A stretch of DNA of 64,000 nucleotides, from the NCBI GenBank assembly GCA_032718475.1, contig JAUCBJ010009097.1:83821-147820 (forward strand), given 5' to 3'. The notes under the pieces were generated by a model. That model saw nothing but the letters and a program-made list of their open reading frames with translations. It was not told where the DNA came from and searched no databases. Both the position numbers and the translations under genes were made by a program. Below, one piece after another: positions 21,181 to 46,065 of the stretch (its first letter is position 1; each line of letters opens with the position of its first letter). This stretch comes from Nemertoderma westbladi (lineage: Eukaryota; Animalia; Xenacoelomorpha).

Positions 21181-22190
21181 AGGTCCGGTACTGCTAACAG
21201 CCATTCTGTAGGATCTGAGGATGTGACAGGTCTATCCATTATCACCAAATCCAGTATTCATATAAAACTGTACAGTCAGATAGTACAAGCCTACTGTGTT
21301 ACCGTGTACAAGTGCCGGTACCGGTACTGTAAAGAGGGAATATTGTGTGAGCTAGCGGTAGAGTAAGCTAAAATCGGTGAAAAAAAGACTTATACTCATT
21401 TTCAGCTAAATTAGTTAAAAAAGGCTTTTTAACTAATTTTCTGGAAATTAGTGAAAAAAAGTTAGATTACTTAACTCAATTTTAAAAATATTAGTGAGAA
21501 AGAGCCTTTTTCAAATAAAATATCTTATCTTATCTTACACGTTTTACAAGTGTTAAGCAGTCTGGATTAAGATTAAGGATTTGGACGACGGGCGTATATT
21601 TTTTATGGGATGCACAACCAAAAGTTGTAGTAGTGTATCAATATAATGAAGTGACTGACGCCAATGTTAAAAAAAATATTATCTGAAACTTAATTAGAAT
21701 TAAATAAACCAGAGACATATCGGACATTATGTAACACATTATTGTATTATATAACAATACCTTTTTTAGTAGGAACTCTACATTTATATATTAAACAATT
21801 CCATACTGTAATCTTTAAACGCATTATGAAGATAATGAATTAAACCACACTACGATGATATTATAGTTATATATCCTCGCTACCAACCTCATACAACGAT
21901 ACTTACTGTTGACCAACCTCCTACAAACGATTATTACTGTCTATGTAATGCGGTTCTGCGTACTACTAATCAATGTTTATCCACCATGAACTAAATTAAT
22001 TGATTTGGTTTTGCATGCAATTACTACTACTCTTGTGATCCATGTTATTATTTTCAGAATTTGTTTTGTATTGTATACACTATAGAGTAGGTACTATGAT
22101 ATACATATATACTTAATATGTGTACACTGTACAGTGTACATATGTAGGCCTCCTACAGTCTATAGGTAGCTTCAACTCGTGTTCTGCAGA

Positions 22191-22839
22191 TGTAAGCGGA
22201 TTCAATTCCACTTCATTACCCACCAGAAAATGGGACTAGTGGCATTTTAGCAATATGTTGGAGATACGAGATTACCAATATCAATCTCGTATCATAACCA
22301 ACATTGGGGGGGGGGGGGCGACACAAGCCCCAAAGCCACATAGAAAGGTTAGAGGTCAAACCACCTCGGAGGGAAGGCAGCTAGTAGATGCTAGCAGCGG
22401 AGGGGAAACACTCCCAGAGAGTGCCAAGGTGACAAGTAGTATATTAGCCAATAGAGGGGAGAGATGCACGTGATAGGGAACAGGAAAGCATCCATTTGGT
22501 AGAGGGCCAAAGTAGAGTAAGAAGGTGAACCAATATTCAATGTATTAATCATATATTATCCTACAATACTGGTTTACCGGTCAGTTGTGTTATTCAGTTA
22601 TTTAGTGCAGACCGGTCATAGTAAATGACCACCACCGTCATACCGGTAACAATTTATCTGTATTTCTGCTTATCTCACATTACTGATTGTGCGATTATTG
22701 TCCATATTTACTAATATCAAAAGACAACAGGAACTTTACTGTTTTCTCAGTCGGCCTCGGCCAAAGCTAACAGCACGATCCCCAGCAGAATGGTGACGCG
22801 TACTTTACCAATCCGGTCGGGATCTCTGATCCTGTCTCA
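22191..22839 (+). repeat. 5' LTR of element 1 (649 bp)
   Basis: tgtaagcgga...gatcctgtctca; about 18 substitutions (counted by eye) plus a G-run length difference versus the 3' LTR. Confidence 0.95.
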
Positions 22840-22903
22840 GTCATTTACTGCACCAACTGTCAACTAAAACTGTGACTGCAGAAGATAAAAGAAAGAACAA
22901 AAG

Positions 22904-25900
22904 ATGAGCGATAGAGAGCCCGATTATCTGAGGGAGAGAGGACGCCACCGCGGACCCAGGACGATACCAACCAAACGATCTGTGAGGCCGCGACGAGACG
23001 GTATCGGCCTGCCACGCTGGATTAGCCAACGAGGGACGATCCGGCTGCCCAAGCAGAGGGCGGCCGTCAACCACGAGCGGGAGACGAGTCGACGCACAAC
23101 GGCGGTCGGAGTACCGAAGTCGCCGGCAGCCACAGGCCGAGGGCAATGGACGGCCCACCGGAACGGCAATGGTGGAGTTACTCAAGGAGGCCAGAGAAGG
23201 GAGAAAGGTAGACCAGCCTAAATTACATCAAAGGCTAGGTCAGTCGAATAAACACTTTCGATATTTAGTCCTTTATGGACAGGGAGAACTGGCGAGTGAG
23301 AGAGCGAGGGGGGTTGCCACGGAACTCTTTGAATTGTGGCGATCCGGGGTAATGGAGACTGAAGTAGTGTACGTAGGGCCTTACTTAGTGGATGCTAGGG
23401 GAATTAAGTTAGTGGGTTGGGCGGATCTGCACGAGGGCGAACCCGAGGTTAACCCAGAGGATTCAGTCTCGTCGGTTAGCGAGAACCCCAGAAAGCGGGG
23501 GAAAGTTAGTAGGACAGAGAGGCGACGACAGGGAGTCCGTCGCGACCGATAAGTCCGCTACATCCTCCGCGAAAGCAAGGAGGGTGTTAGAGATAGATCT
23601 GGCATGTCAACTAGACATGGTGGCGCTGGACCAGAAGGAGTTAGAGAGGCAGCTGGATGAGGGAACTGCGTTATTAGAGAAAGAGAGAGAGTTAGCGAGG
23701 GAATGTAGAGAGAGGGCCGGGAGGGTGGCGAGGAACTGTAGAGAGCAAGAAGAGAGAGAGAGAAACGAGCGTAAAGAGTGGGAGGCAAGAGTATAGAACG
23801 AACGTAGAGAGCGGGAGGTGGGCGAGATAGAATTAACGAACCAAAGTTTGCGAGAGGATAGACGATGCGGTTAAGGGGGCTTATGCAATACCAGGCAAAG
23901 CAAAAGCGCCGATTAGAACTGGTGCAGTTGGGATTATCTGAGAGTGAGGCTGGCTCGGGTAGCATTTACGAGGAGCCAGAGGTAATGGAAACGTTTGTTA
24001 ATACCCCACTTACAGGCACCGGACGACAGACCCAGGACTGGTGTAACCGTACTGGGTGGGGGGGGGGGGGGGGTGTAATAATAATACGTTAGAAGGAATT
24101 AATATTAATGGGACCGTAGTAGACAACCCTAATCAAACTTTTATTGCAGGAAATAATCTTTTACCCGGTAATAATAATCCTAATTTAAATATACAAAATA
24201 ATCCGAATAATTCTAATTTAAATATACGAAATAATCCGAATAATTCTAATTTAAATATACAAAATAATCCGAATAATTCTAATTTAAATATACAAAATAA
24301 TCCGAATAATTCTAATTTGAATATACAAAATAATCCAAATAATAACCCTGATTCCGAACAAAATAATTTAAATAATTTAAATAACCTAGAAAATAACAAT
24401 ATTATTGATAACGGTGCTATTAATACGAACGTAGGAGACATAGGTGGGCCAACCAGCGAGAGCCTGCAAGGCCACATAGTTACGCAGGGAGTAGCGGGGG
24501 TGAGTCACCCCGATGGGAGCCTGCAAGGCCACGTAGTTAGGCAGGGAGCAGCGGGGGTGAGTCAACCCGATGGGAGCCTGCATCCAGAGGCGGGGGTGAG
24601 TAGACCCAGCTGCAGTAGAGACGATGCGTCGACTAGAGAGGGGCGTAGAAGCAAAGTGGGATGTAGTGAAGTAAGAGGTGGCGACCGGGGGGGGGGGGGG
24701 GGGCTACGGGCACCCCACCACGAGAGATTAGTGGCGAGAGGAAGGGGGCAGAGAATGCCCCACGACCATCGGCGAATAATGCGCGGGGTGAGTTAGGTGA
24801 ACCACGGCACCCAACGACGGAGAATAGTAGGGGGATTGCGAATATCCCCAGGAGCGTCCAACCTGGTAGAGAGACAGAGGTTGGCGTCGTGAGCGGGCGA
24901 GCGACGAGACGTCGAGCCCAGTCAGAAGACGGAAGAAGAACAGTGGAGTTTAACCGGGAGGCCTGAAGAGAGATCTCATGAGCGGGAGCGCTACACTGAA
25001 GAGAGAAGAAGTGAAGAGAATAGAAGAAGGGCATTGCTACGAGCAACCGGAGAGCGAGGACAGACAGCGAACCGTCGGTAGTAGAAGTGGAGTTGGAAAG
25101 TCAGTGGGGTCGGACTCCAGGAGATTGCCGTCGCCCCAGAGAGACACAGCCTGGCGAGATATACCATACGCCGGGAGAACGGTACAGGATGTACCGGCTC
25201 GAGGACGAGGACAGGAGAGGGGATCGAAGAGAAACTTCCCGACGAGATGTAGCTGCCAATCGAGAGTACGGTGGTCGTGGGGAGGACTTTTTGGAATATT
25301 CGAGAAGATTAAACTTCGGTCCGGAGGGACACAGGCAGATTGCAGGACATACTGTAGGCCTTACTGCACATACTATAGGCCATGCTGGAAGAGATAGTGT
25401 AGGCGATAGGGTAGCGCGAACAACGGGATTAGATCCGGAAGTCGCGGCGTACATACCGGTAGGTAGGCAAGAAGTGGATAGGCCTATACCGGTACCTGCA
25501 CACCAGTATGACTATAATATGCAGGGATATAACATATACCCAGGGGAGGGGGGAGTTATTGCCGATAGGTGTGTGGGCCCCAATATATTAACATCAACCC
25601 CAGTACCAAACACAACACCGGTGGGGGGGGGGGGCAGGGTGACATTCCCCCATTACAATATCAGCAATACACTCAACCGAGAATAATAACATCGAACCCC
25701 CTGGACCAGAACAGATCGTGCGATACGGAGATATGGAGGGGGCCGTTACCCCCAATGATATATCCGACACAGAAAAAATCAACAGGCCCGACGGGCGACC
25801 CGCACCCAACAGGAGAGTCTGTACAGCATCCCTCGAACCCATTGGAAGCACAGGCGATGGGAATGGCAACACTTATCGATGCGCTCAAGACCAGGATCGA

Positions 25901-26940
25901 GCTACCACCAGTTGAGCCATTTAAATTCGACGGAAGCAGACCAGAAGAATACCTGCAATTCCGACGCATGTACAGCAATGAAATACTAACTAAAAACCTG
26001 ACGCAGGCGGAGTGCCTAAAATATTTACAAGTGTACACAGGGGGCCCAGCGTACGATATCGTGAGGCAGTATCAGGGCATCGAGGGTGGCTTCACGACTG
26101 CATGGCGGGCCCTAGACAGGGAATACGGACACCCTGCCAAGATCATCCGGCAGACCTTGAGGGGAATAACATCGGGTGGCCTACAGGATAACCCTGTTAG
26201 TATAAAGACTTTCGCGAACAAGGTCGAGAAGGCGCTAATCGTGCTAAAGACCTTGGATGCGCCATACGAGCTCAACGCATCGAATAACATCACCACGATA
26301 GCGCAGGCACTGCCGATCTGGCTACGGAACAAATGGAGGAAGATCGCCTTCTCCACCCGGGAGAAGAAAGGTGCGGAACCGGGCCTAGAGGAAATGTCGA
26401 ACTTCCTCAATTATGAAGCAGAGTTGATCACGGACCCAGTCTACAGCGAGGATAGTCTGGGGAGGGCGCCAAAGACCGAATATAACAGGCCGAAACCAGA
26501 ACATAATGCGGCAAATGCATTACCAAAGCTTAGACAATCGCTGCCATACGCGGCGACGCAGGGGACTGCTAGTCCACATGATAGCCGGGGGTAGGGCCAC
26601 ACCATGGCATGGACAGGGACAAAATAACAACACAAATAAATACAACCCCAACACGCCCAGTAGGCCAAACCCAAACAATAAGAACAGTAGAGAACTAAGT
26701 ATGAACGTAGGTGCGATACGCAGCGCACTGTATAGGGATGGCTATAATCCGAGAAACAAATGCCAATTACATTCAACGCACTTCATCAGACCATGAACTG
26801 CAGCATACTGGCAAGCGTTACCCAAACAAGATCAGATAGAATACGCGAGAAAAGTGGAATCTGTCATCGATGTGTGGCGGGCGGACACAAGGCTGAAGCA
26901 ATGCAAAGAGACACCAATTAAGATTCGGTCAAGGCAAAGG
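22904..26940 (+). pseudogene. BEL/Pao gag, disrupted, with a long N-terminal extension
   Basis: DUF1759-type capsid region PFKFDGSRPEEYLQFRRMY...LKYLQVYTGGPA...AWRALDREYG in ORF 25569-26594; upstream coiled-coil and Asn-rich pieces; broken zinc knuckles near 26760-26910. The true start is uncertain. Confidence 0.8.
24170..24345 (+). repeat. 33-bp coding tandem repeat (NNPNNSNLNIQ, about 5 copies)
   Basis: aataatccgaataattctaatttaaatatacaa repeated in frame within ORF 24056-24796. Confidence 0.9.
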
Positions 26941-26947
26941 CCAGACG

Positions 26948-29900
26948 ATGGCGACAAGCACCATAGGAGCGAAGAAAAGGGGAACGGTACTACTCGGGGT
27001 GGTACCGGTGAGGGTAATAGGAGAGGGCGGTCGATCAGTTACTACGTTGATGCTGGTCGACAGCGGAGCAGCCTTCACATTGGTGGAGAATTGGGTGGCC
27101 GAGAGGATAGGGTTACAGACGAGGCCAAGCAGGATGGCGGTAACTACTATCTCCAGCAAGGATGAGGTCCTGGAGATGAGGACGGGAAGGTGCGAGATAT
27201 CAGCAATAGCACCGGGATGTGACTATGGGGCGACCATCGACCCCATCCAGGTAATAGAATCGATCAACATAAACGCCAGGCGACCAACTAACATCGAGGT
27301 CGAGCAATACAGATTCCTGGACGAAATCGATTTCTCGATACCGGAAGTGGACGTCCGGAAGGTATCCATTATAGTGGGGATGGACTGTCCGACGGCCCAC
27401 GAGAGAATACAAACCATCTTCGGAGAGGACAGACAGCGTGATCCAATGGCAGTTCTCACACCATTCGGATGGACGCTTAGCGGCCCAATCAAAACCAAGA
27501 TTCCATTTAGGATGTCGGAGACATCGGGGTGCATGTTCGCGGGGACCATGAGAGAGATGGAGGATGAAGGAGCGGAAGAGCAGCTTAAGAGGCTGTTAAG
27601 ACAGGACTTCGAAGGATTAAAGGAGGCCGGGGTCGGAACCTCGGTAGAGGATAAACAAGCAATAGAGAGTGTGAAGAGTCGATGAAGTGCGACGAGGGGC
27701 GGTACACCATAGGCATGGTGTGGAAACAACCAAAATTACCGTTACCCGACAATAAAGGGATGGTACTCATGAGGCTTCGCAAACTGAAGCAAACACTCAA
27801 ACGGAGCCCCGAGAAGGATGAGTACATCCATAGGACGATAAAGAAGTACGTCGAGAAGGGATGGGCCGTGGAGTTGCCGGTCGACGAACTGAACACTGGA
27901 CAGGACCTACTACCTGCCACTTCATGTGGCTCTAGTACCCAAAGAAGGGTAAACTGCGGATGGTGGTTGACGCATCGGCCAAAACGAATGGCAAGAGCCT
28001 AAACGACTATCTGCTGGAGGGCCCCAATATCTACAACTCGGGGATAGAGGTCTTGTTGAGATTTAGGAATGGGAGGCACGCCTTCACGTGCGACATCGAA
28101 GGCATGTTCAACCAAGTCCGTGTGACGGAGGAGGACAGCGACAGCCAGCGCTTCCTATGGTACAACGGCGACGAGGAACCGTCGGCAATACCGATGTACA
28201 AAATGGTGGTGCAGAACATGGGGGCCAAGTCGTCCTCATTTACGACAACTATGGCTGTAAGAGATACGGTAGAGGGGAAAGAGGGAAAGTATAGTGCCAA
28301 AGCGATCGACATGATTCTGACGCGGATTCTATGTAGACGATGGGATGGAATCTGGGAATACGGTTGAAGAAATACTGGAGACAGGGCGCGAGGTTCGCGA
28401 CATCCTGAAAGGATCCGGATTCAACCTGACTAAGTTCCAGTCCAGCTCAGAGGAGTTCATGAGAGCCATAGAAGACAGGCGGCCAGAGTCGACCATGGAC
28501 AACCCCACAACAGCCAAGGGACAGGACATGGCGAACAAGAGAGTGGAGTCTCAGCAGAAGGCGCTGGGGATCGTGTGGAACTGGGAGACGGATGAGTTCG
28601 AGTATCAACTAAGCCAGGAGGGCGCAGAGATCCACACAAAGCGAGGCTATGTATCGTACATAGCAAGGATATACGATCCCTTAGGCCTAGCATCCCCATT
28701 GTTAGTCACGGGGAAGCAGATACTAAAGAAAGTATACAAGTTGAAGGACGAGTGGGATACGGAGGTCCCGGAAGAAATAAGCAAACAGTGGAGTAAGTGG
28801 ACGGGGAGTTTAGAACAGATGGGGACATACAGCATGCCATCGCGTGTATTTCCCGGACGGGGACATGACGGACCTGGACCTACACATGTTCTCCGATGCA
28901 TCTTTGGAAGCATACGGAGCGGCACTTTATCTGGTACAGCGAAAGGGGGCTCACAAGCCCAGACTTGCATTTAGTAAAGCGAAGTCGACGCCACCAGATT
29001 CAGCGTCAGTCCCGAAACTCGAGTTGACAGCTGCGAGGTTAGGAGTAAGAGCCACAGCCTACTTGATGGACACTATACCCAATATAGTGGAGACACACTA
29101 CTGGACGGACTCCATGGTAGTGCTGGGGTGGCTGCATAACGAGAAGACGAGATACCCTATATTCGTCCGAACAGGGTAGACGAAATAAGGGCGACGACCG
29201 AGCTAGACAGGTGGCATTACTGCCCTACCGACGACAACCCTGCAGATTTGTTATCAAGGGGCGTGGCACGCCACACTTTCTCAAAGAAGGAAGGGTTGTG
29301 GCAACACGGGCCACACTTCCTGAACGATAGATCAGCCTGGCCACCAATGAGGAAGGTGGACCCGGGCTCAGAGGAAGTAGCACCAGAAGAAGAGGGGGAA
29401 GATTCAGAAGGGGAAGAGATATATAGTCAGATGGTGAGGGAGATCAAGGAGGTGCCACCGAAATCAGAAGAGCCATGCGACAACCCGACGGATAGGTTAC
29501 TCAGTTACAGCTCCAGCTGGTATAAGACCAAGAAGTTGGTAGCGTATTGGAGGGCCTACGGGGATTTCCTTAAGGGAGTTGGCAAGGATGCCAAAAGGAA
29601 ACCAAACATCGATCTGGAGGGAGCGGCCAAGGCCGTAATACGGTACGAGCAGAGAAAGAACTACGCCGACGAAGTGGATAGAGTTAGCAAGCAACAACAT
29701 CTTCGTCGAGACAGCGAGCTCAACACGCTGTCCCCACAGCTAAACGATGACGGGATTCTGGTGATGAACTCCAGAGTGCTGAACAACAACAGCCTAGTCA
29801 TCCCACCAAAACCCATAATCATCCCTAACAAATCACCGATAGTCCACCAGATCATTTGGGACGCCCATAAGTCGATATTACATGGAGGCACCAACCAGAC

Positions 29901-30860
29901 TCTCACAGAGATACGGAGCACATTCTGGATCACACAGTTAAGGAAGAAGGTGAAGGCGGTAGTGGGGCAGTGCCAGACCTGCCGACGGACGAGAAAGGAG
30001 AGGGCCGTACAGGAGATGGCGCCATTACCGGCCAATAGAGTGAGACAACACGACCCGCCATTCACGCACTGTGGTGTAGACATGTTCGGGCCGATTAAGA
30101 TTAAGGTGATGCGACACACGGAGAAACGCTACGGCATTATCTTCGTATGCAACAACACGAGGGCAGTAGGAATAGAACTCGCCCAGGACGCTACGGCATC
30201 GGCATTCATTAATGCCTTAGAGAGATTTAGAGACCGCAAAGGGGGAACAATCGCGGTGATTTATTCAGACAATGGGACCAACTTCGTGGGAGCGGAGAAC
30301 GAGTTGGCAGAGGCCTTCGACATCCTAGAGGGAGACGATGTCAGGGCGGCTATGAGGAGGCGGCAAGTGAAGTGGGAAAGGAGGACGCCGTATGCGCCAC
30401 ATACCTTAGGATGTGTCGAGAGACTTGTGGGAAGTTCTAAGCGTCTAATGACGAAGTTGATGAACACCCACATGGTCACAGAGGACATACTAAGAACGGT
30501 GCTAGCTAAGTGCGAGGGAATCATTAATAGCAGACCGCTATATCCGGAGAATGACGACCCAGAATCACTGGACGTGCTAACACCGGGACACTTTCTGATG
30601 GAGAGGCCGGCGACCTCATCGACATGCGGGGTGTAGACCCAGATGACATACATTCCCGATCAGAGTTGGAAAGTCGCCAAGGCGATAAGCGCCGAGTATT
30701 GGAGGAGATGGGTAGAGGAATATCTCCCCACATTACACAGGAGGAGTAAGTGGAGAAACACCACTAGGGAGTTGAAGAAAGAGATGACTATATAAATGAA
30801 ATAAAAGTAAATACTAATTATGGAATCACAAAATAAATAAAAATATATAAATTATCAATA
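26948..30860 (+). pseudogene. BEL/Pao pol (protease, RT, RNase H, integrase), frameshifted
   Basis: Protease LVDSGA; RT RMVVDAS, DIEGMFNQV, FYVDD (~28327); Pao RNase H YDPLG, FSDAS, PKLEL, WTDS, NPADLLSRG; integrase HHCC, GVDMFGP, SDNGTNFVG, ERLVG; DUF5641-like W.RW..EYLPTL. Confidence 0.95.
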
Positions 30861-31189
30861 ACCAGTGGAGGCTAGCGAGAGTGGTAGACACTTACCCCGA
30901 CGAGGACGGAAGAGTCCGGTCGGTGGAAGTGCGGATAGGAGGCAAGATAGGAGCAAAGGACAGGAAGACCTACAGGAGGGCTGTAGGAAAGTGCTGCCTT
31001 CTAGAAGGGGCACCTTAGAGTTTAGTCGTCCAAATGTAGGACTGAGGGGGGTGGGATTGAGGGCGAGACGCCCTTCCCACACAAAATATAAAATAAAAAT
31101 AAAAAGATAATAAAATTAAAAGGTGAGATAAAATAGAAAGTTAGAAAGTAATAGTAGGTAGTACGTAGTACTAAGTAAGGAGGCAGATA

Positions 31190-31503
31190 GAAGTATAGGG
31201 AATGTGGTATATAAACATACCACGGGAGTAGGAGGGTATATAGTACCGTTAGAGTTAGAAGCATAGGGAGTGTGGTATATAAACATACCACGGGAGTAGG
31301 AGGGTACATAGTACCGTTAGAGTTAGAAGTATAGAGAGTGTGGTATATAAACATACCAGGGGAGTAGGAGGGTATATAGTACCGCTAGAGTTAGTGGAGT
31401 TAGTAGAGTTAGTAGACTTAGTAGAGTTAGTGGAGTTTGTAGAGTTAGTAGAGTTAGTGGAGTTAGTAGAGTTAGTGGAGTTAGTAGAGTTAGTAGAGTT
31501 AGC
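31190..31503 (+). repeat. Three 68-bp tandem units followed by a 9-bp microsatellite (gagttagtr)
   Basis: gtggtatataaacatacca starts at 31204, 31272 and 31340; about 13 copies of the 9-mer span 31388-31503. Confidence 0.9.
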
Positions 31504-32100
31504 AGTAAGAGAGCAGAGAGTATGATATAAACATATCATGAGAATAGTAGTAGTAGGGTACGTAGTACCATAGAGGTTGTGGACATAGAGAGCGCCACGA
31601 AAGAGAGAGGGGGGCACGTGGGTATAGCAGGATAGACCGTGTAGGCCGCACGAGACAGACTACTGTACTGCACAGCCCATAGAATAAGTTAGGATGTTTG
31701 ATACAGGGCCAGGAGGCTACCTGGTACAGACTAGAAAAGTAGAGAATAGCTAGTCTACCCTGTATACAAACTATAGGGGTTATCTAAGTAAAATAACCCA
31801 CTATAAGCGGTAATAGCATATTAATAAAAATTAAAATAGTATTAGAGAAAACAATTCCAACAAATTATGGTAACAGTAGGTGGAAAATTCTAGAACATAA
31901 TAAAGGTAACTGACAAATTTAGGGAATTTAGGAAAATTGGCACTTTGGGGGGCGTATAGGTAAAAATATAACACAGAACTAGCATTTTGAGAGAGATAGG
32001 CCATTACTGAACCAGTACAGACCATCGTACTGAACGTCACTCATCTACTTGAACCTTGGCAAGGCACCACCAAGCGGGTGAGCGAGCGAGAGAGTTCGTA

Positions 32101-34650
32101 ATGGCAGAGAGACTAGTCAAGAAGAGAAAGACAGAGAGGAGTGGAAAGGAGATACTAGTAGACTTCACGCAAAGGCATCCGGAAGAGAAAACGAGGGGAT
32201 ACTACGAGCCATTAGCAAAGGGTCACAAAGCGCGGGCGCTGCAGGACCACTTCAGGGAGATGCACGAGAGGCGACTGGTCAGGACCTACGGGACACCGTC
32301 GCTGGACAACGCGATCCTCGAGCATTTTCGCTACGTGGTGAAGGGAGATGAAGCGAAGTTTAGGATACCAAAGTATCCGAGAGAACCACTGAGAAAGGAC
32401 TGGAGGAGGTTTGTAGAGTCCGTAAACAGGGGAGGAAACATGGTCCTAGACGACGAGGGGACTGTGGAGGACGAAGAGGGTTCGAGAAGAGGGTCGGCGG
32501 GGTCGGCCAGAACCATACTACTGCATTTGGCTACACCAAATCGAGACATATTCCTATTCGATCTAGGAACGTACAGCAAGAAGAGCGGGCCGAAGTTAAA
32601 CTGGTTGCCAAGGGCGGTGCAAGACCTAGTAAGGGAGAAGACAATGGTGAAGGTGGGATTGGCGATCCACAACGATGCGGAGAGGATCGTCGGACCGGAG
32701 ACCCCCAACCTCCTGGACATGCAAGCGGTCTATATGGCCATGACAGGGTCAGACGGGTTGGGATTGGTAGAGAAGACAGGACATTGCGGAGCAGTGGTGA
32801 TGGGCCATCTCATGGGACTCGTCTGCCACAAGCCAATGGACTGGGGTAAGTTCCGGGAGGAGTACGGAGCGGAGCTGGCGAACTCGCTGAAATGGGGAGC
32901 GAGGCCAGGGAAACAGGAGGTGTATCAATTCCGGAGAGGAGCAATAAAGATATATCAGAAGAGATATATCCTACAGGAGGATTGGATAATGATAGGTTTA
33001 CTAAACCTATTCATGGCCGTGGTTATCGGAAGAGAGCCAATGGCGTTTCTGCTATCAGGATCACCCCTGAACTACAGAAGAGCCTTCATGGTGGCCTTCG
33101 AAGGTCTGGTAGACCACCCGGGGCTGAAGGGCGAGTCGGTGTACTACAACAGCCGGCATCAAGTAGACAGGGAGGTGGATACACCATATCAGAGGTGGGA
33201 GAAGCTGGAAGCAGATAGAGTTGAGAAGAAGCGACTGGAAGAAGTCGCCAGACGAGAAAGGAGGGAGGCAGACGAAAGAGAGGCGGAGGCTAGGTGAGAG
33301 GATTACGGGTTCGAGGCCTAAAACTTGGACGAGCTGAGGTGGGGATCAGGGAGCTCGGGCGAGTTTCTGGGGGAGGAGCTAGGATGGACGGAAGAATCGC
33401 CGAAACAGTCGACATCAGGATTGCAAGCGATGCCCATGCCAGCGGGCTCTAAGGGCGATTTTGTGAGAAAGGGACCGAGAGAACAGGAAGGATGGAAAAT
33501 TACGGGTAGGAGCCATGGCGGAAAGGGACAAAGTGGGTCTGCCGGGATACCGGGTCTGGCTCCACTCCCAGCGGGGGAAGAGGATGACGATGAGCTCGGG
33601 GAGATGCCGCCCATTGAGAGGATCGGCCACTCAGACATGGACTGGGTTGGCGGGAGAGTGGTGACAGCCAGTGGGGCGAGGGCCTTCTGGGATAAACCCG
33701 GCAAGCGGACCTGGGTGCACGAGGAGCCGGCGATGGATTTCGCGGGGAGCATCATCAGGTTGGGTGAGCAACCGGGAACGGCACCACGGCTAGTATTTGG
33801 AGAGACGATGCCAAGGCAGGAGGAGGACGTAGACATGGATAGGGACGTTAACGTCCAGAAGTTTGCTTACCAACGGCTCCACAGAGCTAGGAGACCGCTC
33901 GGGGCAAAAGATGACTTGGGGCGGGATGCGTTGATACACGGCTGTGATTACTGCGGGAGGCTGACTCACCAGGAAAAGAGCTGTTTGTATCGATTCCAGA
34001 AGGGGACGAGGTGCCTCTACTGCCGCGAGTCGAGCCATCGGATGGGAGTGTGTCCGAGGTTGTACAACCGCTGCTCAAGGTGTAACTTCCGAGGGCACTA
34101 TGGGCGCCAGTGAGACTGGATGGATGACGAGGAGAAGTTTAAGATCTTCGAGGAGTGGGCCGACGTCGGCGTTATTACACGACAGAGAATGAAGGCCCGG
34201 GAGTTCCGGTGGGGTTTCTTCAACATCAATCAGGAAGTCCATCTGGAGATTATTAAGAGGAGACTTCCATTTACATACCAAGAGGTAGCGACAGCGGCGT
34301 CGTATGGAGGAGTCATCAACACGCAGAGGTATTTGGATAGATGGACACCGGAGAACAGAGGAGAGTTTAGAGATTTTCTGGCGGAGCACGTGCCGCAAAC
34401 CATGAAAATGATCTTGTGGGACGCTACCAGGGGGAAGCAGGAGGGGCATTCGGAAGGGCCACCTGCAAAGCGTTACCGGGAGCTAATAACACCAGCGCCC
34501 AAAGAATCGACCATGGGAATTAGCAAGGCGGTAACGGCAAGAATGAGGAGTCTCAGAGAGGAGAAGCCAGAGGGAAGGAAGCGACCCAGACAGGACGATG
34601 ATAGAGGGAAAGAACTAAGATGGTTCCCGAGGACGGGAGGAGCGAACTAG
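32101..34650 (+). pseudogene. Accessory ORF of element 1: DEDDy-like 3'-5' exonuclease plus three CCHC zinc knuckles, interrupted by three in-frame stops
   Basis: Track ORFs 32056-33297, 33325-34113 and 34120-34650 share one frame (stops at 33295, 33319, 34111; first ATG 32101). Exonuclease motifs: VLDDEG, LLHLAT...IFLFDL, LPRAVQDLV...KVGLAIHNDA, LLDMQ, QKRYILQED. Knuckles: CDYCGRLTHQEKSC, CLYCRESSHRMGVC, CSRCNFRGHYGRQ*. Confidence 0.78.
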
Positions 34651-35340
34651 GACTCAGAGGGGGAGATGTGGGCGTGCCTGGAAGGCACCACATGTGAAGT
34701 AATACGAACTCCTAAGTGCAAAATTAATTAAGTGCAATTAGGATGTACGTATGTAATAATCAATATAATTAGAATATAATTATAATGAATATAATCAAAG
34801 TAATTACTATAGTCATATATAACCTTTTTCCAACTAACTACTGGGACTGGGGACCAATTGACTATGACAGGAGGACGGGAGACTAGACGAATCACATTTC
34901 TTGAGTGCGACGGCACAAAAGGGGAGGGTGAGGCTCGTCAGGAGTGAGTGGAGTGAAACGTGGGTTGAGTATAGGAGTATGAGGGAAGTATGGAGAGGAG
35001 GTGTTGACGTCTGTAGAAGCTAGAGGGGTGCAATTCAAATGTGGGGAGCGAGCAGTAAGAGAGAGAGTAAGGGACAATAGGGTCCATAAGAGATAGAGTA
35101 GAGTGACGTTAGAGTGAGTTCAGAGCGAAGTCGTATAAAATTGTGTGAAAAGGAGTCCACAAATTGTCTTGAACAGAGACGTCAGATATCTTGGTGCAAC
35201 ATAGTTCGCGATTGCACCAAGGAGGGGTAGCAATATCATACCCAGGGGGGCGGCCTGGAAAGCCGACCCCAAGAAAAGAACTCCACCCCACACCCGATAT
35301 TAGATTGGGTCCCAGCGGTCCCAGCGGCACTTGAGGTTGG

Positions 35341-35377
35341 TGCTATCTTCTCACCGGGAAGATAGCATGGGGGGGAG
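35341..35377 (+). promoter_or_regulatory. Stem-loop and polypurine tract of element 1
   Basis: Perfect 10-bp stem tgctatcttc/gaagatagca (35341-35367), then gggggggag immediately before the 3' LTR. Confidence 0.85.
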
Positions 35378-36032
35378 TGTAAGCGGATTCAATTCCACTT
35401 CATTACCCACCAGAAAATGGGACTAGTGGCATTTTAGCAATATGTTGGAGATACGAGATTACCAATATCAATCTCGTATCATAACCAACATTGGGGGGGG
35501 GGGGGGGGGTGGGACACAAGCCCCAAAGCCACATACAAAGGTTAGAGGTCAAACCACCTCGGAGGGAAGGCAGCTAGTAGAGGCTAGCAGCAGAGGGGAA
35601 ATACTCCCAGAGAGTGCCAAGATGACAAGTAGTATATTAGCCAATAGAGGGGAGGGAAGCACATGATAGGGAACAGGAAAGCATCTATTGGGTAGAGGGC
35701 CAAAGTAGAGTAAGAAGGTGAACCAATATTCAATGTATTAATCATATATTATCCTACAATACTGGTTTACCGGTCAGTCGTGTTATTCAGTTATTTAGTG
35801 CAGACCGGTCATAGTAAATGACCGCCACCGTCATACCGGTAGCAATTTATCTGTATTTCTGCTTATCTCACATTACTGATTGTGCTATTATTGCCCATAT
35901 TTACTAATATCAAAAGACAACAGGAACTTTACTGTTTTCTCAGTCGGCCTCGGCCAAAGCTAACAGCACGATCCCCAGCAGAACGGTGACGCGTACTTTA
36001 CCAATCCGGTCGGGATCTCTGATCCCGTCACA
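35378..36032 (+). repeat. 3' LTR of element 1 (655 bp)
   Basis: tgtaagcgga...gatcccgtcaca followed by TSD gcaga. Confidence 0.95.
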
Positions 36033-36689
36033 GCAGATGATGGCTGCTTTTGCGCAGTCTAGCTGCACTTACGTTGTGTTAAATCCTCTTTTTATTCCAC
36101 CTGTCATAATAATTATGCAGTAAAGTAATTTTATTATTTAATAATAATATAATGTCAGATTGTTTGAGAAATGTATGTGTTTATACTTTATATATGAACG
36201 AGAAAGAAATCCATAATGCCAGCCTGCTCCCCTGGCCTGTGCGTGCAGCCAGACACGAACATATTGTTCGGCTAGAAGCTAGAAGCTCTAGCCAGGTAAT
36301 CTCTGATTAAATGTAGTGCCAAATGACACCCATAATGTAATTGTAAATCTTTTGAATATACGACGTCTGAGTTCTTTATAACACCATGTATATGAATGTC
36401 ACTAGTACTTACGTTATATTCTTACGGAATATTATTCGCAGTAGGTTTCTAGTTCGAAATCGCGAGAGTAGTACTCTAGGGTACAACCATACAGCGTTGT
36501 CGTGGCTTTTATATGAGTTATTGAATAGTAAATAGAATAAAAAAACCCGCCATTAATTGAGTTTGGTAAATTGAGGAATTATAAATTATGTAATTATATT
36601 CTTTAATCCAACATATGGAATTAATAATTTATAAAATAGCTAAAATAATTAATTATAAAATGTATATCTACTAATAATTAAAAATGCAG

Positions 36690-37532
36690 TTAAACGAGTT
36701 CGAGGAGGCGAGCTTATATGTTAATAGCTCAGGTGTCGGTCGGGGGTTCTATACTCATGAGGTACAGGGCGCACCTTAATACTGATAAGTTGGTTGGAAT
36801 TCCAGGGCATTGTGAATAATGTGCGGCCGAGGTAGCGTTACTGTTACATAACCAACAAACACAGTTATCCATGGTCCTCCAGCAGTTGTGCTTCTTACAC
36901 AATCGATGATGGCAGCCATTGGCGATTAGCTGGGCTGCGGCTCTGGGGCTTTGCGGCGGAACACAGTTAGGGACACGAGATTTATTTCTGCACCATCGCA
37001 GTTATCGATTGCGTTTAGTACTGCAGTTGAGGATGAGTACTTACTAATGCCGCACCATAGTTTGTAATAGAAGGCTCTTACGCGATGTACATGTTCTAGT
37101 TGCGGTATGTTTTCCAGTGAGGTAAAAACGGTGCATCCATATGTTGCTGAGGGGTAGACTACTGAGGTCCATAGCCGCTTTGTTGAGTCTAGCGATATAT
37201 GTTACATATTTGCTTTAGTTGCAATACAGATGGAGCTGGCCACACCCTTTTTGTATAAGTGCTGATAGTGCGCGGATGGTCCATTTTTTGTGGAGAGAAT
37301 GACGCCTAGGTAGTGAAAAGTGGTTTTGAATTCAAGTTTGGAGCCATTGTAATATAATATGTCCCTTTGAGCTAACCGTCCACCTTTGCGAAATTTTACA
37401 ACTTTTGATTTTGATAGGTTGACCGTGAGGTCGTTGACCCGGCAGTAATTAGATAACCTGTCTAGAGCGTCCTGAGTGGTCTCAATTGAATCCCCAACTA
37501 TGACAAGATCATCTGCATACATAATAACAAGG
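36690..37532 (-). mobile_element. 5'-truncated non-LTR retrotransposon (L2/CR1-group-like), RT C-terminal half
   Basis: VIMYADDLVIVG...QDALDRLSNYCRVNDLTVNLSKSKVVKF...FHYLGVILS. Confidence 0.85.
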
Positions 37533-37672
37533 CAGAGGGCTCCCAGAGGGCTCCCAGAGGGCTCCCATGAGACAGAGGGCTCCCAGAGGGCTCCCAGAGG
37601 GCTCCCATGAGACAGAGGGCTCCCAGAGGGCTCCCAGAGGGCTCCCAGAGGGCTCCCAGAGGGCTCCCATGA
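37533..37672. repeat. 11-bp GC-rich minisatellite (cagagggctcc) at the LINE truncation point
   Basis: About 10 copies punctuated by catgaga, starting directly at the 5' truncation of the YADD-containing fragment. Confidence 0.9.
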
Positions 37673-38022
37673 GAATGGATGGAACATTATATTATAGGAA
37701 TTATAGGAACATCATTTGTGTATTGAAACATAATAAATTGAAATATATCGCATGTTAATTATACATTAAATTACGTGGGTGATACTTATTTTTATGTTCA
37801 CCAATATATTATCAATAAGTTTAGTTACAATAAAATTAAACATAATAATCTATACAATACACTGTTTAAAACACTTGGACTTAATTTACGGTATATTTCA
37901 TTATATACGGTTAAAAAATGTAAATGATAATAATATTAATTTATTACATTAAACAGTTCGAAAGTTGATAATGTGAGATAATCAAAAACTTTATATGTGA
38001 TTGGTTGATAATACATGACAAT

Positions 38023-39365: not shown

Positions 39366-40571
39366 TGTAAAGGCTTTTGCGGATATAACCAGTCATTTTT
39401 CTCCGCAATGAACTGTTTAGTTGCTTTAGCGGACATAACAAGCCATTTTTCCCGCAAAGTACTGTGTAGGTGTTTTAGCGGACATAAAAAGCCATTTTTT
39501 CTGTATGTGTACTTTAGCGGACATAACAAGCCATTTTATGCCGCAATACGCCAAATACTCTTAACACAGTGTAATTCAGATGACGAAATCTATCAGCTGA
39601 TTTAATGTCGATGTGGAGCTTTCTTAACTCTCTTTGTTCGGCTCACTCGACCAATCAGAGCGATTTTCATTTTATTTGCACAGAAGCCTACGGGAAATCA
39701 CGCAATGCATGACGGTCTTTGTTTACCTTTTCCTGAGCCCCAGAACATCGGCTTTGGAATTATTCTGAGTTTCAGACTTTAGCCAAACATTCGACGGCTT
39801 TGATTATAGGAACGTATAACTGTTATCAAACCAAGTCACGCAGTGTCAGACTCAAATCACCATACATACCTGTCCTACCGCATTATTTTACTTCTGTTTA
39901 CTGTCGGTTATTAATTGTTAGAAGTTGATGGATATGTTGTTATATTTGGAGAATATCGATAAATAATCATAAAACCCCAATCTTCTTGATATACTGAAGG
40001 TTAGAGAGACCGGTTACCTGTAGCAATTGCGACTTACATTATAGTAGTTTTGGAGTGAATTGAATGCTATTTCATAATCCCTACATGTGTCAGTTACTAT
40101 TCTCCTTATATATGATCAAATTTAGTGAAGGTCGGCAGATCAGTGTGCAGCAGTGTGCGGTAGTGTGCATGAGTGTGACAGATAACGAAGCATTTCCTAA
40201 AGAATGCGCTTTATACGAAAATCATTAGCCATCCCGTTGTGTTTAGTGTAAGTCATAACTCTGTTTACATACTTAGAGCGCCACGTCCTAAAGGAACTGT
40301 TAATATTTCCCGAAAGTAAATAATATTTGTCAGAGATTATATATTAACGATCAATCAAATAGTACAGTAAGTCTACACCGCAATAAGGTCAGAGCCTCCG
40401 TATCCAGTCTCCCTTAACTGTGGGTGAATGGTCGCTCATAGGCTGGCTTCGGCTAATGTAACTTTATATCTTATATGCAACAAATACTTGTTATAGGCTA
40501 AAGTCGATTTATAAACTAGAAGACACCTAAAATTAGCGGGTTAAACTGCTACAGGTCTAAAAGCGCGAACA
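39366..40571 (+). repeat. 5' LTR of element 2 (1206 bp)
   Basis: tgtaaaggcttttgcgg...aagcgcgaaca; it opens with four subrepeats of the type ttagcggacataacaagccatttt (39373-39545). Confidence 0.95.
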
Positions 40572-42400
40572 ATAACAGTTATTTTAGTTTCTTTATTGCA
40601 ACGTAGGCAATAAAGTCGAAAGTACCGGTCGACCGGTAACCTGTAGGCCTAACTACCTAAACACCCGAACCGGTACTTACAGCAGTACAGGTACAGCAGT
40701 ATTATTCGATTTTGGTAATATATACTGGTAGGTCTTGATATTTAATCAGGGACTGCAGCCCTGGTTTTTTATTGGGATTTTACTTATTTCTGTCAGTTTT
40801 ATTTATCTGTAAGTTAATATTGAGCAGAAGGCATGTAAGCCTGCTCAAATTGTACAAGTAATTTGTAGGCTGGATTGTTGTCTGGCTGTTGTCAGGTCCG
40901 AAGAGATTGCAGTGTGTGTAGAGTGTATGTCCGATAAAATACTAGTTAGGAAGGTGGGGGCATCCAGTGTTGTAAGGTAAATCCCCTCCGAAAGAATAAG
41001 TCGTACTACTCGGTTAGAACGCATACTAACTAACCATTTCGGAGTCTGCATATACTGTAGTTTATTTAGGCTTGATAGTAGTCTGTCAGCATTTGGTTTG
41101 TATTTTGTTTGTGTAGTCTGTATGGGTAGCGTAATATTTATTATTCAGAGTTTATGCGATTATTCGCAACATACACAACCCCAAGTTTATTCCTACAGTA
41201 ATTGTGCTTGTTATACATACCGTTATAGTTAAATTAACCCCGGTACTACATCAGGGCTGTTTGGCGTAGGTAAAGACTGGTGATTTTATGCTCTAGTCAC
41301 TCCAGCAGATACCATGGTTCTTTTAGCTGTACAAGTATTTTTAACTGCTGGTTATTTGTTCTATAAGTACTTGTACCTAATTTAGGGTTTAGTGTACAGT
41401 GCTTTCCGAAGGTAATTAGTGTGTTGGCAGTATATTTGTGTTGTAAAGTGGTTAATAGGCACGTTAGCTATGGTTGGCTGCGGTAATTAACTTCTAGATA
41501 GGGACATTCCGGGTACATAACGTAATACTTATAGAGCTGTAAAGCTAGAGACTATAAGTCGTCAGACGGTGGTAATTTCTTATCTAGACAACGCAATATA
41601 TTTACTACTGCTTTATTATTTTCAAATACCGTAGTTTCCTGTCCGTTTGTAAGAACCCGAAATTCTAACCCCTTGTTATGCTGGTTTGTAGATTTCCTGT
41701 AAAATTACCCCTAAAATTTGTACGTGTAACTTTTGTGTTTATTTAGAGATTGTAATCTCACACAGTAATTGTACGTAATTTGTAGTAATAAGTAACTTAG
41801 TAAATTATAATTATTTGTTTTAGTGTCCAATAAGTAGCACTCCACTGAGAGCGTTCAGCTTCTGTGAAGTGACTCCTTACCTAGAAATAATAACATTTAT
41901 TTCAAATATTGTAACAAAAACCCATTAAACGGGTATATATATATTATAAATCAACTCAAGCCGATTTATAAAATAGTAGGCCTGTCATCCATCAATTAGG
42001 TCTTAATATCAGTTGGACTACTGCTTAAATAACGGTAATAAAATAACGTAAAGTAACCCTAAAATTCAGAAATTTAGTTATTATAAAATAATTGACATAC
42101 CGGTATTTACGATAGGCTTATTATATTTATCTCTATAAATTTAAGCTGAAATTAGGCTTATTGTATTTATTTCTATAAATTTATGCTGAAATTATATACC
42201 AGTATTCTGTGATGAACCCTAGTCCGTAATAATACTTATATATACTATAAGTGTATACCGGTATTTTAATATATTGTATATATCACGTTACACTGAGTAA
42301 CGATATCGGTAATTAATTACTAGGCTTATAGTTGATACTTAATTACTAGACTTGCTTTAACTGTAGTTCTAGCAGTAGGCATTCAACTGTACAAACAAAC

Positions 42401-45400
42401 ATGGCTGACACAAAGCAAAACCTGTCAGACAGTCTCCTAGATACAACAATCTGTGATCCAGATAGGAGTGCAGAACGTTTGAGACCGAAGTTCAACTCCC
42501 CTCCTACTGTAAGAAAGGTCATCCCTCCAGTAGTAGTATCAGACCCTAGGCTAGTAAAGTACCTTAGGTCTATCATAGGCACTCGGGCTCAAGTCAAGCG
42601 GGACCAAGAGGCAGCTGTTAAACAACAGCAACACCCGAGCCGAGAACTTATTTCTCAGCGGCCCGATAGCTCCAGTAGTTCAGATACTGTAGAGTTATGA
42701 CACCCGAGCGCGGAGCAAAGATGGCAGATGCAGTTTATTCGGATCCACTTTTCATTCTTCCTGAAGCCGTACTCACTAGAGTATTGATTGCGGTGGAGGA
42801 ACATCAAATTGATTGGGCGAGAAGTAAGCGATCGACCAAGGACAGTTATGCGGGATACACGAAGGAGGAACTGAAGTCTATTGTTGAGTCGCAATGGAAC
42901 TTCCCCGGACCCGGACTCCCGTTTAACTTATTGGAAGCTGCCTGGGAGGACTTATACAGGATGGGAGTGGTAAGGGACACTAGAGATCCAGCTGTGTGGA
43001 AGAGGTCAGCAGCAGGATATGTACAGGGATTCTTCAGCTCTTTGGAGCGATTAGAGGAACAACTGTTTCAACAACCCCAAGGACCTCAAGAGCAGGGAGA
43101 GCTGCTTTATCAAGTTCGAGAAAGAATTCTAAGAATCAGACTAATCCTATTGGCCTTTGAGGAAGCTTCGAAAAGAAGCCAAGACACGTCGTTGCAAGTT
43201 GCCATAAAGACTTGGTTCCAGCGGGTGGGTCTCAAAGTTCAAGGAACGGCCCAGTGGAAAATTCAGCTGGCTGAGCGCTCAACCCACGGAGAATCAACAG
43301 ACGCTACCTTTTCTCAAGTGGAAAGCGAAGCGACAGCAGAGAAACCTCAGAAGAAGGACGCTATTGACATCTATCTGTCGGACTATCAACGATTTCTAGG
43401 TGATGAAGAGTTGAGGAGACGGCTGGCTGGACTTCGTCCTAATAGTGAAGGAGCCAAGTTTGTGTTGGACGCAATAGATGCGGAAATGTTAGCTGCGAAC
43501 CAAGCTAAATTTGATGAAAGCATCCGCATCGCTAGGGTCCAAGAAGAACATGTAAAAAAAAACGTATAGAAGACAGAAAGACAGCAGCAGCGGCAGCGGC
43601 AGAAGTTGAAAGAAAAGCGGCAGTGGCAGCGGCAGAGGCAGAGGCTGAAAGAAAAGCGGCAGAAGCGGAAAGAAAAGCGGCAGAAGTGGAAAGGAAAGCG
43701 GCAATGGCAGCGGCAGAAGCGGAAAGAAAAGCGGCAGAAGTGGAAAGGAAAGCGGCAATGGCAGCGGCAGAAGCAGAAAGAAAAGAGGCAGAATTGGAAA
43801 GAAAGGTAGCAGCGGCAGAAGCGGAAAGAAAAGCGGCAGAGGCAGTGGCAGAAGCAGAACGGAGGGCGTCTGAAGAGACCACCCAACTAGAGTTGGAAAA
43901 TCTTCAAGAGAAGCAAGACTACATAGATAAACAGAGAACAGCTAGTCAGTGGCAGATGATAAGTCGATCTACTCCCAAGAGACAGGGATTTACATCATCT
44001 GATGAAGGCGATACAACAGATCCTGAAGGCGGAGGAAATAGATCTCGTCTCAGCAGGCGTAGAAGAACGCCCCACCGTCAGAAATTGCCTAATTTGCCCC
44101 CAGCTGTGAGAAGGCAACTAGCTAGCACAGACTTAGGTAGTACAGAACCCACAGACCAAATTATTAGAGTAAAAAGACTCCCTACTATAGTAGATGAGCC
44201 TGAAATAATTAGGCCTGTTCACGAAGCCACCCCCTCTGTGATAGAGACCCCTGTACTTCCAGAACCCAACTCTAAATTCCCTTTGCATAGCACTAAACTA
44301 CCTGTGCCCAGTAGAACAGTCCCTGAGACAATTCATGTCCTGGACGGCGAGCGAGACATCAACGCTTTATCGCCCGTCGTCCCTCGTCTACCCGCTACTA
44401 TGTTGGCGGCTCCCGCTTCGGCGGTCGAGTGGGTGGATGAGGGACGGCGGGGGATGGATCTCCTGCTCGGGCAGATGCAGGAGACAGTTCAAGGGAACAG
44501 TAAGGGAAAGTAGGTTAGAGTTGCAAGAAGTGCAGCAGAGTATCGCGTTAGAACGCGATAAATTAGTAAATACACAAAGGGGTATACCACCACCCCCTGT
44601 AACAATGTGTCAACCTGTTAGGTCTGAAGTATTTCATGCGCAAGGTGTGGAGCCTACACGCATCTATACTGCTAGTGAAGTAGAAACTCCTATAGTAAAC
44701 CCTATTAAGGGTAATTATAAACCTGTTGACAATGATATTCCATAAAGACCTGATAATAATCCGAGAAATTTATATACCAATAACTCGATATTAAATAACA
44801 CGATGGCCCAAGAAAGTTTTACGCGTCAAATGGCTAGAACCGAAGCCCGTCAAGCGGTAAAAGTGGGAGAGATCGTCAAGTTCAATGGAGATGAGATGAA
44901 ATGGTTACCTTTTAATGAATATTACAAAGATAACATACAGAACTCTGTACTATCTAACGGAGAGAAACTTAGATTCCTCATCGAGTGTTTGGAAGGACCT
45001 CCCAAGTTAATGGCGTTAAAGTTTATTGGACATCCAGATGGATTAAGACAAGTTTGGGATACACTAAACATCAGGTATGGTAATAGGACAAACATAGCTA
45101 GGTATTTGTATGCAAAATTAGTAGCGCCCCGAAAGTTCCTTAGCAGCGGGATTATAGAGTTTTCCGATGAGATTCAGGAGATCTGTAGACAACTAGATTG
45201 GTTAGGTAAGTCTCATGAATATCAGAGTTCCATGGTTATTGGAGCCGTAGCCTCTACTTTGCCCAAGGGTGGAGTAGGTACTCGCTGGGACAAGAAAGTG
45301 CTCTATATGATGGACCAGCAACAAAGAGACCCTACCATGGCTGATCTCATGTCATTCTTAAATGGAGAGGTAAGATTACAGCTCCTAAAGCAGTCCCGAG

Positions 45401-46023
45401 AGAAGACACCGGAAAATAAGGTAATTGTAAAACCCGTTTCTAGGAGAAAGGTCACCCCAGTGTGTTATACAGATGACGGCGAAAGCCAAACCTCTCAAGA
45501 AGAGAACAGCGGGAAAGACACCGAAAGATCTTACTATGTCAACAAGGCACCCAAGGATGTAAGAAAATGTAAGTCTCGAACCAGTGACAGGAGAGAACAG
45601 ACAACAAAAACTCCTCCCACGTCTCCTAAGAGAATTCAGGGAAGAAAGCCCGAGGAGAGAACAAGTGTGCACAACACTACACAAGGTAAAGTAAGTAACA
45701 TCAAACCAAAATGTGCGTTGTGCGACAGGCCCCACCGTTTAAGTGTGTGTGATGAATTCTTAAAGAAATCCCTAAAAGATAGACGCGAAGTCATGTAGGA
45801 TAAGCGGTTGTGTTATAATTGTCTCAGACAAGGACACCAACGGCGAACCTGTTACTCCGACGCAAGGTGTGCTAAGTGCGGCGCGAAACATCATATCTTA
45901 TTGCACACCGAATTCGAAAGAAACAGCCCGAGTCAGGTAAGTGAGTCCGAACTACATGTCCAATTCAGTGATGTGAACGACACTGACCACAGTTCTGAGA
46001 TGGAAGGATTTTACACAGACTAA
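42401..46023 (+). pseudogene. BEL/Pao gag of element 2, disrupted
   Basis: DUF1759-like KFNGDEMKWLPF...EKLRFLIECLEGPP...VWDTLNIRYG; three BEL knuckles CALCDRPHRLSVC, CYNCLRQGHQRRTC, CAKCGAKHHILLH; AEAERKA coiled-coil repeat at 43580-43870. Confidence 0.88.
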
Positions 46024-46065
46024 TTCTCCGATGAAAACGAATCCTGTTATCAAATAAACACCGCA

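Follow-up and report, generated by a model that had tools for sequence, protein, structure and literature searches.

We describe here a decayed BEL/Pao retrotransposon (positions 22191-36032, 13,842 bp) in a 64,000-nucleotide window from Nemertoderma westbladi (GenBank assembly GCA_032718475.1, contig JAUCBJ010009097.1, positions 83,821 to 147,820, forward strand; coordinates below are those of this window). Between its integrase and its 3' long terminal repeat (LTR), the element carries a third open reading frame (ORF3) for a protein with a DEDDy 3'-5' exonuclease-fold domain, three CCHC zinc knuckles and a helical C-terminal domain. We regard the identity of ORF3 as a BEL/Pao third gene as practically certain. 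Judged by comparison with related loci, this gene is conserved across a branch of BEL/Pao, co-inherited with pol and under purifying selection.

When 1.84 billion representatives were scanned in full with HMMER, 47 proteins reached E<=0.001, and each matched best in the region of the knuckles and C-terminal domain; many of these are 500-900 residues long and also match in the N-terminal domain. In addition, a degenerate knuckle pattern retrieved at least 120 loci from metagenome assemblies, 80 of them with flanks (the 40 lacking flanks were left out), and the locus counts that follow rest on the loci listed from these assemblies. The knuckle profile matched 74 of the 80 flanked loci, the remaining six being dropped, and three identical loci (L009, L033 and L075) were entered once. 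Of the 30 listed loci with at least 5 kb of upstream sequence, 28 have BEL pol in that sequence and on the same strand, as do 35 of the 41 with at least 3 kb; the exceptions at 5 kb are L023, which has BEL gag and DUF5641 upstream and no pol match, and L013, which has no BEL remnant. Pfam recognised Peptidase_A17 or DUF5641 in 25 of the 29 neighbouring ORFs scanned, and matched none of the 40 ORF3 candidates of the family. The relatives' third genes are only 15-25% identical to the window ORF3. Trees of the 3' part of pol and of ORF3, compared over 25 shared loci, were strongly correlated (Mantel rho 0.875, reached in 0 of 5000 permutations), with 9 of 13 starred pol splits recurring in the ORF3 tree and none in conflict with a starred split. 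The window gene was placed beside the proteins P0004, P0005 and P0008, with an SH-aLRT of only 94. Over 22 pairs, pairwise dN/dS was 0.09-0.55 in the nuclease; in the knuckle module, where 21 of these 22 pairs were estimable, it was 0.07-0.45. These are likely upper values, since codon bias compresses dS. A first-pass annotation of this DNA had named linkage of homologues to BEL pol, recurrence across the family and dN/dS among the points on which the gene should be judged: linkage and recurrence were found, in BEL-linked loci with congruent trees, and dN/dS lay well below 1.

Several family loci depart from the common arrangement. L023:6428-10375 is an apparent pol-deleted derivative that retains gag, DUF5641 and the third gene. 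Other members, namely L009, L033, L075 (a 507-codon frame), L013, L054 and L004, show no BEL remnant in the available flank and are possibly domesticated or relocated copies; in the L009 type the active site is degenerate, and inverted repeats lie nearby in L033 and L075. Finally, L006, L016, L044 and L053 contain third frames of 1,328-1,592 codons from stop to stop, with no Pfam match in the extra part.

The nuclease assignment rests on family profiles and predicted fold because the window protein alone gave no nuclease match in sequence searches of Pfam or the PDB. The family profile matched EXD2 (E 2.9e-13), the trypanosome RNase D TbRND (2.9e-8) and WRN (9e-5), and a profile of 56 nuclease domains again matched EXD2 (4e-13), with WRN at only 0.76; a profile made without the window protein recovered that protein at E 8e-16 to 9e-20 in a local set. 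The motifs quoted by the first-pass annotation all lie at the coordinates it gave, and their order was in register, with ExoI D117/E119 (32449, 32455), ExoII D192 (32674) and ExoIII Y289/E293 (32965, 32977) falling in the family's ExoI-III columns. The fourth acidic ligand is Glu instead of Asp in the window protein and likewise in 14 of 62 aligned rows. An AlphaFold model from 81 sequences (mean pLDDT 64) contained two confident regions, at about residues 68-340 and 613-778, with a long helix and then a disordered linker between them; a single-sequence prediction had a pLDDT of 37, too low to use. The nuclease region of the model matched structures of the DnaQ/RNase H-like fold with VIA Z scores of 12-14 over 175-222 residues: Nibbler (14.1, rmsd 3.5, 202 aligned), diDNase (13.3), WRN (12.9), TbRND (12.7), RNase D (12.5), EXD1 (12.2) and Egalitarian (12.0). 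Foldseek likewise gave 38 matches at E<=0.001, every listed one of this fold. Both the DEDDy fold with its four acidic ligands and Tyr and the DnaQ-like fold, on which the earlier proposal depended, were recovered. Pfam detection, by contrast, failed: the window protein gave no match to PF01612 (DNA_pol_A_exo1), only one of 56 domains reached E<=0.1, and P0019 scored 23.3 bits against a gathering cut-off of 23.6. The closest relative differs by method, being EXD2 by sequence and Nibbler by structure with close scores, and no donor subfamily can be named because the Z scores are too close.

The knuckles, which begin at 33943, 34012 and 34072, are the most conserved part of the family. The knuckle pattern occurs once in the window (0.00 occurrences expected) and had 0 matches in viral contigs. 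Against the PDB, a profile of the knuckles and C-terminal domain reached only E 0.27 and 0.45, to retroviral Gag/NC, and sequence search found no solved relative of the helical C-terminal domain. Derivation of the knuckles from the element's own Gag, which gave only E 0.8-1, is not supported. The linker between nuclease and knuckles comprises about 270 residues and is disordered in the model. The basic motifs resembling nuclear localisation signals (NLS) that had been pointed out near the end are present in the window protein's tail, but recur in only 2 of 14 relatives' tails, and we rejected both the NLS-like tail and the coiled coil as family features, neither being conserved among relatives. 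As had been proposed, there is no env-like membrane anchor: the window protein has no membrane-grade hydrophobic stretch (hydropathy maximum 1.65; 2 of 60 rows exceed 1.9), its N-terminus is charged, and the combination of signal peptide and C-terminal anchor typical of retroelement env proteins is absent.

The two halves of the protein differ in how strictly they are kept. Six positions of the knuckle module carry the same residue in all 81 sequences. The active site was scored in the 57 complete rows, the other 24 of the 81 lacking one of the five catalytic columns; all four acidic ligands are kept in 33 of these 57, and on the tree this state has changed at least seven times. Among the 42 BEL-linked loci, 33 unbroken genes could be scored (nine were broken or cut): the tetrad is intact in 18 and degenerate in 13, and the nuclease is undetectable in two (L048:3341-6529 and L061:6880-9648), each an open third gene with the knuckle module behind an acidic region. 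Twelve of the degenerate genes form one starred monophyletic clade that is still selected (dN/dS 0.19-0.50, 10 pairs). Because the nuclease was repeatedly lost while the knuckles were retained, the knuckle module appears indispensable and catalysis optional; and because the module is constant and the nuclease is not, RNA binding is likely the core job of the third gene.

In the window itself, ORF3 is one recently decayed gene. It runs in a single frame from ATG 32101 to TAG 34650 and was analysed with X at its three in-frame stops. Sister copies came from three public DNA runs of an organism referred to here as organism A (at most two samples, short contigs), in which tens of thousands of short contigs are spread over the whole window element; no RNA run was listed among those with the sequence. 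Stops 33295 and 33319 have another letter in all of the aligned sister-copy depth of the three runs, and stop 34111 in 94-96% of it. ORF3 is counted as one gene because the sister copies mostly lack its three stops, as had been anticipated for a gene of about 850 codons with later stops (849 codons as measured); the third stop, TGA 34111, indeed falls on the last Cys of the third knuckle. Of the 39 variable places listed between 33900 and 34330, moreover, 30 fall on third codon positions (p 3e-8) and none is an indel. Neutral decay at half the LTR divergence would be expected to leave about 1.4 stops, against the three present. Contigs of all three runs also skip about 2.1 kb at 32864-34982, with a junction side of only 24-32 letters, which suggests sister copies with most of ORF3 deleted.

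Clues to expression come from codon usage and from the end of pol. At fourfold sites, the nuclease region is richer in GC than either gag or pol in 13 of 13 related elements (medians 0.83, 0.64 and 0.63), a contrast absent from the window element, and in several relatives an ATG in good context directly precedes the nuclease. Long antisense frames over ORF3 in relatives were attributed to this codon bias, as was the low dS, and were not taken as genes. In L044:1266-1272 and L007:6358-6365, the ORF3 ATG overlaps the pol stop or sits 2 nt behind it, as in stop-restart translation. In 13 of 33 loci, which were chosen after inspection, pol ends in UGA: these are 11 of the 13 loci of the dead-nuclease clade with a pol end, plus L030 and L080. 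The base after this UGA is C in 12 of the 13 (7 CGG, 3 CAA). The path from stop to nuclease is open in frame in nine, over 354-738 nt (chance by shuffling 0-0.04 per locus), and has one break in each of the other four. Ten loci share TCGG at +19 or +20, with a stem that begins 8-9 nt after the stop; there, 8.6 of 10 bases pair with their own partner against 5.9 across loci, and the arms are only 34% identical. Together, the UGA-C context, covarying bulged stem-loop and open path predict type II readthrough. The signature is concentrated in the dead-nuclease clade; neither the window element nor any of the other 20 loci examined has it.

We consider it quite plausible, if somewhat short of probable, that the knuckles grip the element's own RNA and that the intact nuclease trims RNA 3' ends. 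ORF3 would be translated from a message of its own, starting at its ATG. In one subgroup, readthrough of the pol stop would likely add a second route and produce a Gag-Pol-ORF3 fusion, which would be carried into the particle. The knuckle module would bind single-stranded element RNA as its indispensable function, and an intact nuclease would shorten this bound RNA from its 3' end, removing added tails or remnants of the primer or of RNase H action, in the way that trypanosome RNase D works with its knuckles; such trimming may keep element RNA fit for packaging and reverse transcription.

A number of observations weigh against this proposal. Its substrate, element RNA rather than host small RNA, is a prediction, and a preference for RNA over DNA cannot be read from the fold, where diDNase and DNA polymerase domains tie with RNA enzymes. 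The second BEL/Pao element of the window (39366-54213) has no detectable ORF3 copy, and BEL replication therefore likely does not need ORF3. The strong codon bias suggests abundant synthesis of the protein from a separate message, and a diffusible suppressor would account for this equally well. The window element has no readthrough path, its pol ending in TAG before a closed spacer. No BEL remnant is seen over 10 kb at L013, nor over 3 kb at L009/L033 and L054. The trees are quick LG+G4 searches with long branches, and the counts are not independent because pairs and elements are related.

The most serious rival is a suppressor of small-RNA silencing, which would act on piRNAs, siRNAs or tRNA fragments by binding, trimming or sequestering them, or would serve as a decoy for host Nibbler/EXD1-type factors. 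The nearest folds do include the piRNA factors Nibbler and EXD1, loss of catalysis with binding retained fits sequestration, high fourfold-site GC suggests abundant separate expression, and the family is present in many copies in organism A. However, the best sequence match is EXD2, which is not a piRNA factor, and nothing points to an arms race: dN/dS is well below 1 throughout, and nuclease dN lies near that of the integrase region in the same pairs (for example 0.07 vs 0.13, 0.30 vs 0.29 and 0.44 vs 0.31). A Gag-Pol readthrough fusion would, furthermore, point to action at the particle, and strict vertical inheritance with pol would be easier to explain for a cis-acting helper. We thus hold the suppressor to be rather unlikely. 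A broader version, in which the protein is the counter-defence factor of an ancient BEL/Pao branch, a knuckle-guided nuclease or, in some lineages, a dead-nuclease decoy that would strip or sequester the small RNAs and 3' tags by which the element is silenced and, in one subgroup, would also reach particles by pol-stop readthrough, is likewise unlikely in our assessment. An adaptor for transport or targeting, either an Egalitarian-like reader that brings element RNA to the germline or nucleus or, fused to integrase by readthrough, a tether of the integration complex to nascent RNA, would account for the concentration of the readthrough signature, which would place the protein at the integrase C-terminus, in the dead-nuclease clade. 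Egl-BicD complexes stand at the top of the Foldseek list, a structure with the I-factor RNA signal is among the matches listed, and Egl catalytic residues are dispensable for RNA binding, according to the part of PMC13186709 available. Yet the margins between Foldseek ranks are small, the protein shows no detectable LOTUS-like domain, relatives conserve neither the long helix nor the NLS-like tail, and one would still have to explain why 33 of 57 rows keep an intact active site, which leaves the adaptor decidedly improbable.

The remaining explanations fare worse. In a proofreading or cDNA end-processing role during reverse transcription of so large an element, which the first-pass annotation had also entertained, ORF3 could draw on a WRN/EXD2/Pol I-type fold that acts on DNA in several relatives and could be delivered to the particle by Pol fusion; the element, at 13.8 kb, also exceeds the 4.2-10 kb given for BEL/Pao (PMC8742986). 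This role is nonetheless disfavoured, and very improbable in our estimate, because many intact relatives have lost the active site or the whole domain: of 33 open genes linked to BEL, in elements whose gag-pol is intact, 13 have a degenerate active site and two no detectable domain. In addition, circularly assembled relatives measure only about 9-10 kb, and the 14.8-kb BEL element of the same window does without a detectable copy. That ORF3 is a one-off captured host gene or an env-like protein we consider extremely improbable; it does occupy the env position, and a few family loci are free of BEL remnants, but linkage to BEL pol throughout the clade, the congruence of the trees and purifying selection stand against a capture, and the charged N-terminus and lack of any membrane-grade hydrophobic stretch against env.

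The features of the element are collected in Table 1. As the first-pass annotation had recognised, its boundaries are intact, with TG...CA LTRs and the duplication GCAGA on both sides. The LTR pair is identical in 630 of 655 columns (96%), with 19 substitutions and six gap columns. The Pfam order DUF1759, aspartyl protease, Peptidase_A17, H2C2 and rve is that expected of BEL/Pao, and gag followed by protease, reverse transcriptase, RNase H and integrase, together with the polypurine tract, agrees with this assignment. No TGG-type primer-binding site was found after the 5' LTR of this decayed copy; TGGCGCC(C/T) occurs in 14 of 16 displayed relatives and a variant in one more. The window copy is dead because pol, measured against intact relatives, shifts frame at least five times. 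The spacer between pol and ORF3, previously put at 1.2 kb, measures 1,082 bp from the pol stop at 31016; it has no open frame continuing from pol, its threefold 68-bp repeat contains TATATAAA, and it is a candidate internal promoter or splice region. A predicted bulged hairpin at 31044-31076, about 30 nt 3' of the pol stop, loosely resembles the relatives' stems and lacks the readthrough context.

Table 1. Features of the window BEL/Pao element and its ORF3, with the related loci of predicted readthrough type
Feature	Position or loci	Strand	Basis
Left target-site duplication, GCAGA	22186..22190	+	
5' LTR, TG...CA	22191..22839	+	
gag piece with DUF1759 (BEL/Pao capsid region); remaining gag broken	25569..26594	+	Pfam E 3e-11
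pol: protease, reverse transcriptase, Peptidase_A17-type RNase H, integrase; at least five frame changes; stop 31016-31018	26897..31018	+	
Spacer, 1,082 bp, repeats of 68 bp (x3) and 9 bp (x13)	31019..32100	+	
ORF3, 849 codons, interrupted by stops 33295, 33319, 34111	32101..34650	+	
DEDDy 3'-5' exonuclease-fold domain, residues 68-347	32302..33141	+	family profiles, predicted fold
Charged 36-residue helix, coiled-coil-like; then low-confidence linker to about 33936	33184..33291	+	AlphaFold
Three CCHC zinc knuckles	33943..34113	+	pattern, alignment
Conserved helical C-terminal domain (F-E-x-x-A-D-x-G...T...WGFF)	34126..34431	+	alignment, AlphaFold
Polypurine tract, 5' of 3' LTR	35369..35377	+	
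3' LTR, TG...CA	35378..36032	+	
Right target-site duplication, GCAGA	36033..36037	+	
UGA readthrough-type loci at pol stop (predicted)	L002, L008, L030, L032, L034, L035, L038, L040, L064, L067, L071, L072, L080		

Elsewhere in the window, the second BEL/Pao element has 1.2-kb LTRs that are 97% identical, a GTTAA duplication and a different broken coding region at about 51200-52970, with no family, Pfam or locus match. A reverse-transcriptase fragment (37202-37711, -) lies outside both BEL elements. A 638-codon open frame (58543-60459, +) without a significant Pfam match adjoins an inverted-orientation array of 30-bp repeats (60501-61040). The left part of the window contains a near-identical tandem duplication (6966-11319 and 13663-18017; 99.9%, 6.7-kb spacing), three similar open frames on the minus strand (714-1454, 8573-9310 and 15271-16008), of which the one scanned is a p24/emp24-family gene, and a 37-bp minisatellite of about 90 copies at about 2616-6300.

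These data identify a conserved non-env third gene that is invisible to Pfam and has been kept with pol across highly diverged BEL/Pao elements. Because this one accessory protein occurs naturally with an active nuclease, with a dead one and without any, its versions can be compared and the role of retrotransposon DEDDy genes becomes testable, and the predicted pol-to-ORF3 readthrough signal offers a second testable feature. If the protein does counter small-RNA silencing, an animal LTR retrotransposon would encode its own suppressor. The bdelloid rotifer elements Juno and Vesta, with which ORF3 can be compared, are Ty3/gypsy-like.

DEDDy ORF3s were described in 2017 in Juno, Vesta and Terminons (PMC5408684), and Athena/Terminon elements with a DEDDy ORF also appear in the portion of PMC6431247 available. 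In the Belpaoviridae, which are animal elements, only gag, pol and at most env-like genes have been described (PMC8742986), and the term 'exonuclease' is absent from the main text of PMC3118150 (supplements not included) and from the part of PMC13524379 available. The first-pass annotation knew of no such cargo as a standard BEL/Pao component, and for BEL/Pao we found no report of a DEDDy third gene in the full-text literature (most subscription papers and the Repbase, Dfam and GyDB annotations lying outside that scope). Among LTR elements at large the type of cargo has a precedent in the rotifer ORFs (PMC5408684). As far as searched, the gene is new for BEL/Pao, and a database annotation may exist.

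As in our elements, the Juno/Vesta ORF3 is a DnaQ-like DEDDy exonuclease behind pol without a membrane anchor, and roles in 3'-end processing and silencing, both predicted, were proposed there too (PMC5408684). Juno and Vesta, however, bear a dUTPase, are described as having acquired ORF3 recently with exchange between element types, and have the motif DEED and no described triple-knuckle module (PMC5408684), whereas the ORF3 reported here is found in BEL/Pao, was inherited with pol over deep divergence and includes three knuckles and a helical domain; its nuclease is often dead or absent, and its motif is D-E-D-E in the window and mostly D-E-D-D in relatives. The slot between integrase and 3' LTR is shared with BEL/Pao env-like genes, such as the roo F-type and the mosquito Chuviridae-like glycoprotein (PMC8742986 and PMC13524379, as far as these texts were available), but ORF3 has no signal peptide, membrane anchor or glycoprotein fold. 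With EXD2, WRN exonuclease, Nibbler/Mut-7, EXD1 and Egalitarian it shares fold and motif order at only 10-20% identity, and none of their accessory domains was detected. The UGA-C context and covarying stem of the relatives resemble type II readthrough, which uses UGA-CGG and a stem-loop about 8 nt downstream (PMC3542737, in part), and the predicted passage from pol into a third gene recalls pol-env stop suppression in SIRE1 (PMC2829016, in part). Finally, TbRND (PDB 7c42/7c45) likewise has a DEDD exonuclease followed by CCHC knuckles, and its resemblance to the family extends over both parts in the profile match and to the fold, with Atlas features (0.86) serving as a lead only. TbRND, which trims guide RNAs in the cell, has four knuckles and a linker of 28 residues, whereas the window protein has three knuckles, the far longer linker given above and an extra C-terminal domain, and the resemblance in architecture is likely convergent. 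In TbRND the knuckles raise RNA binding and cleavage, which provides a precedent for knuckles that feed RNA to a DEDD domain (PMC7797062 for TbRND throughout, from the part of that paper available).

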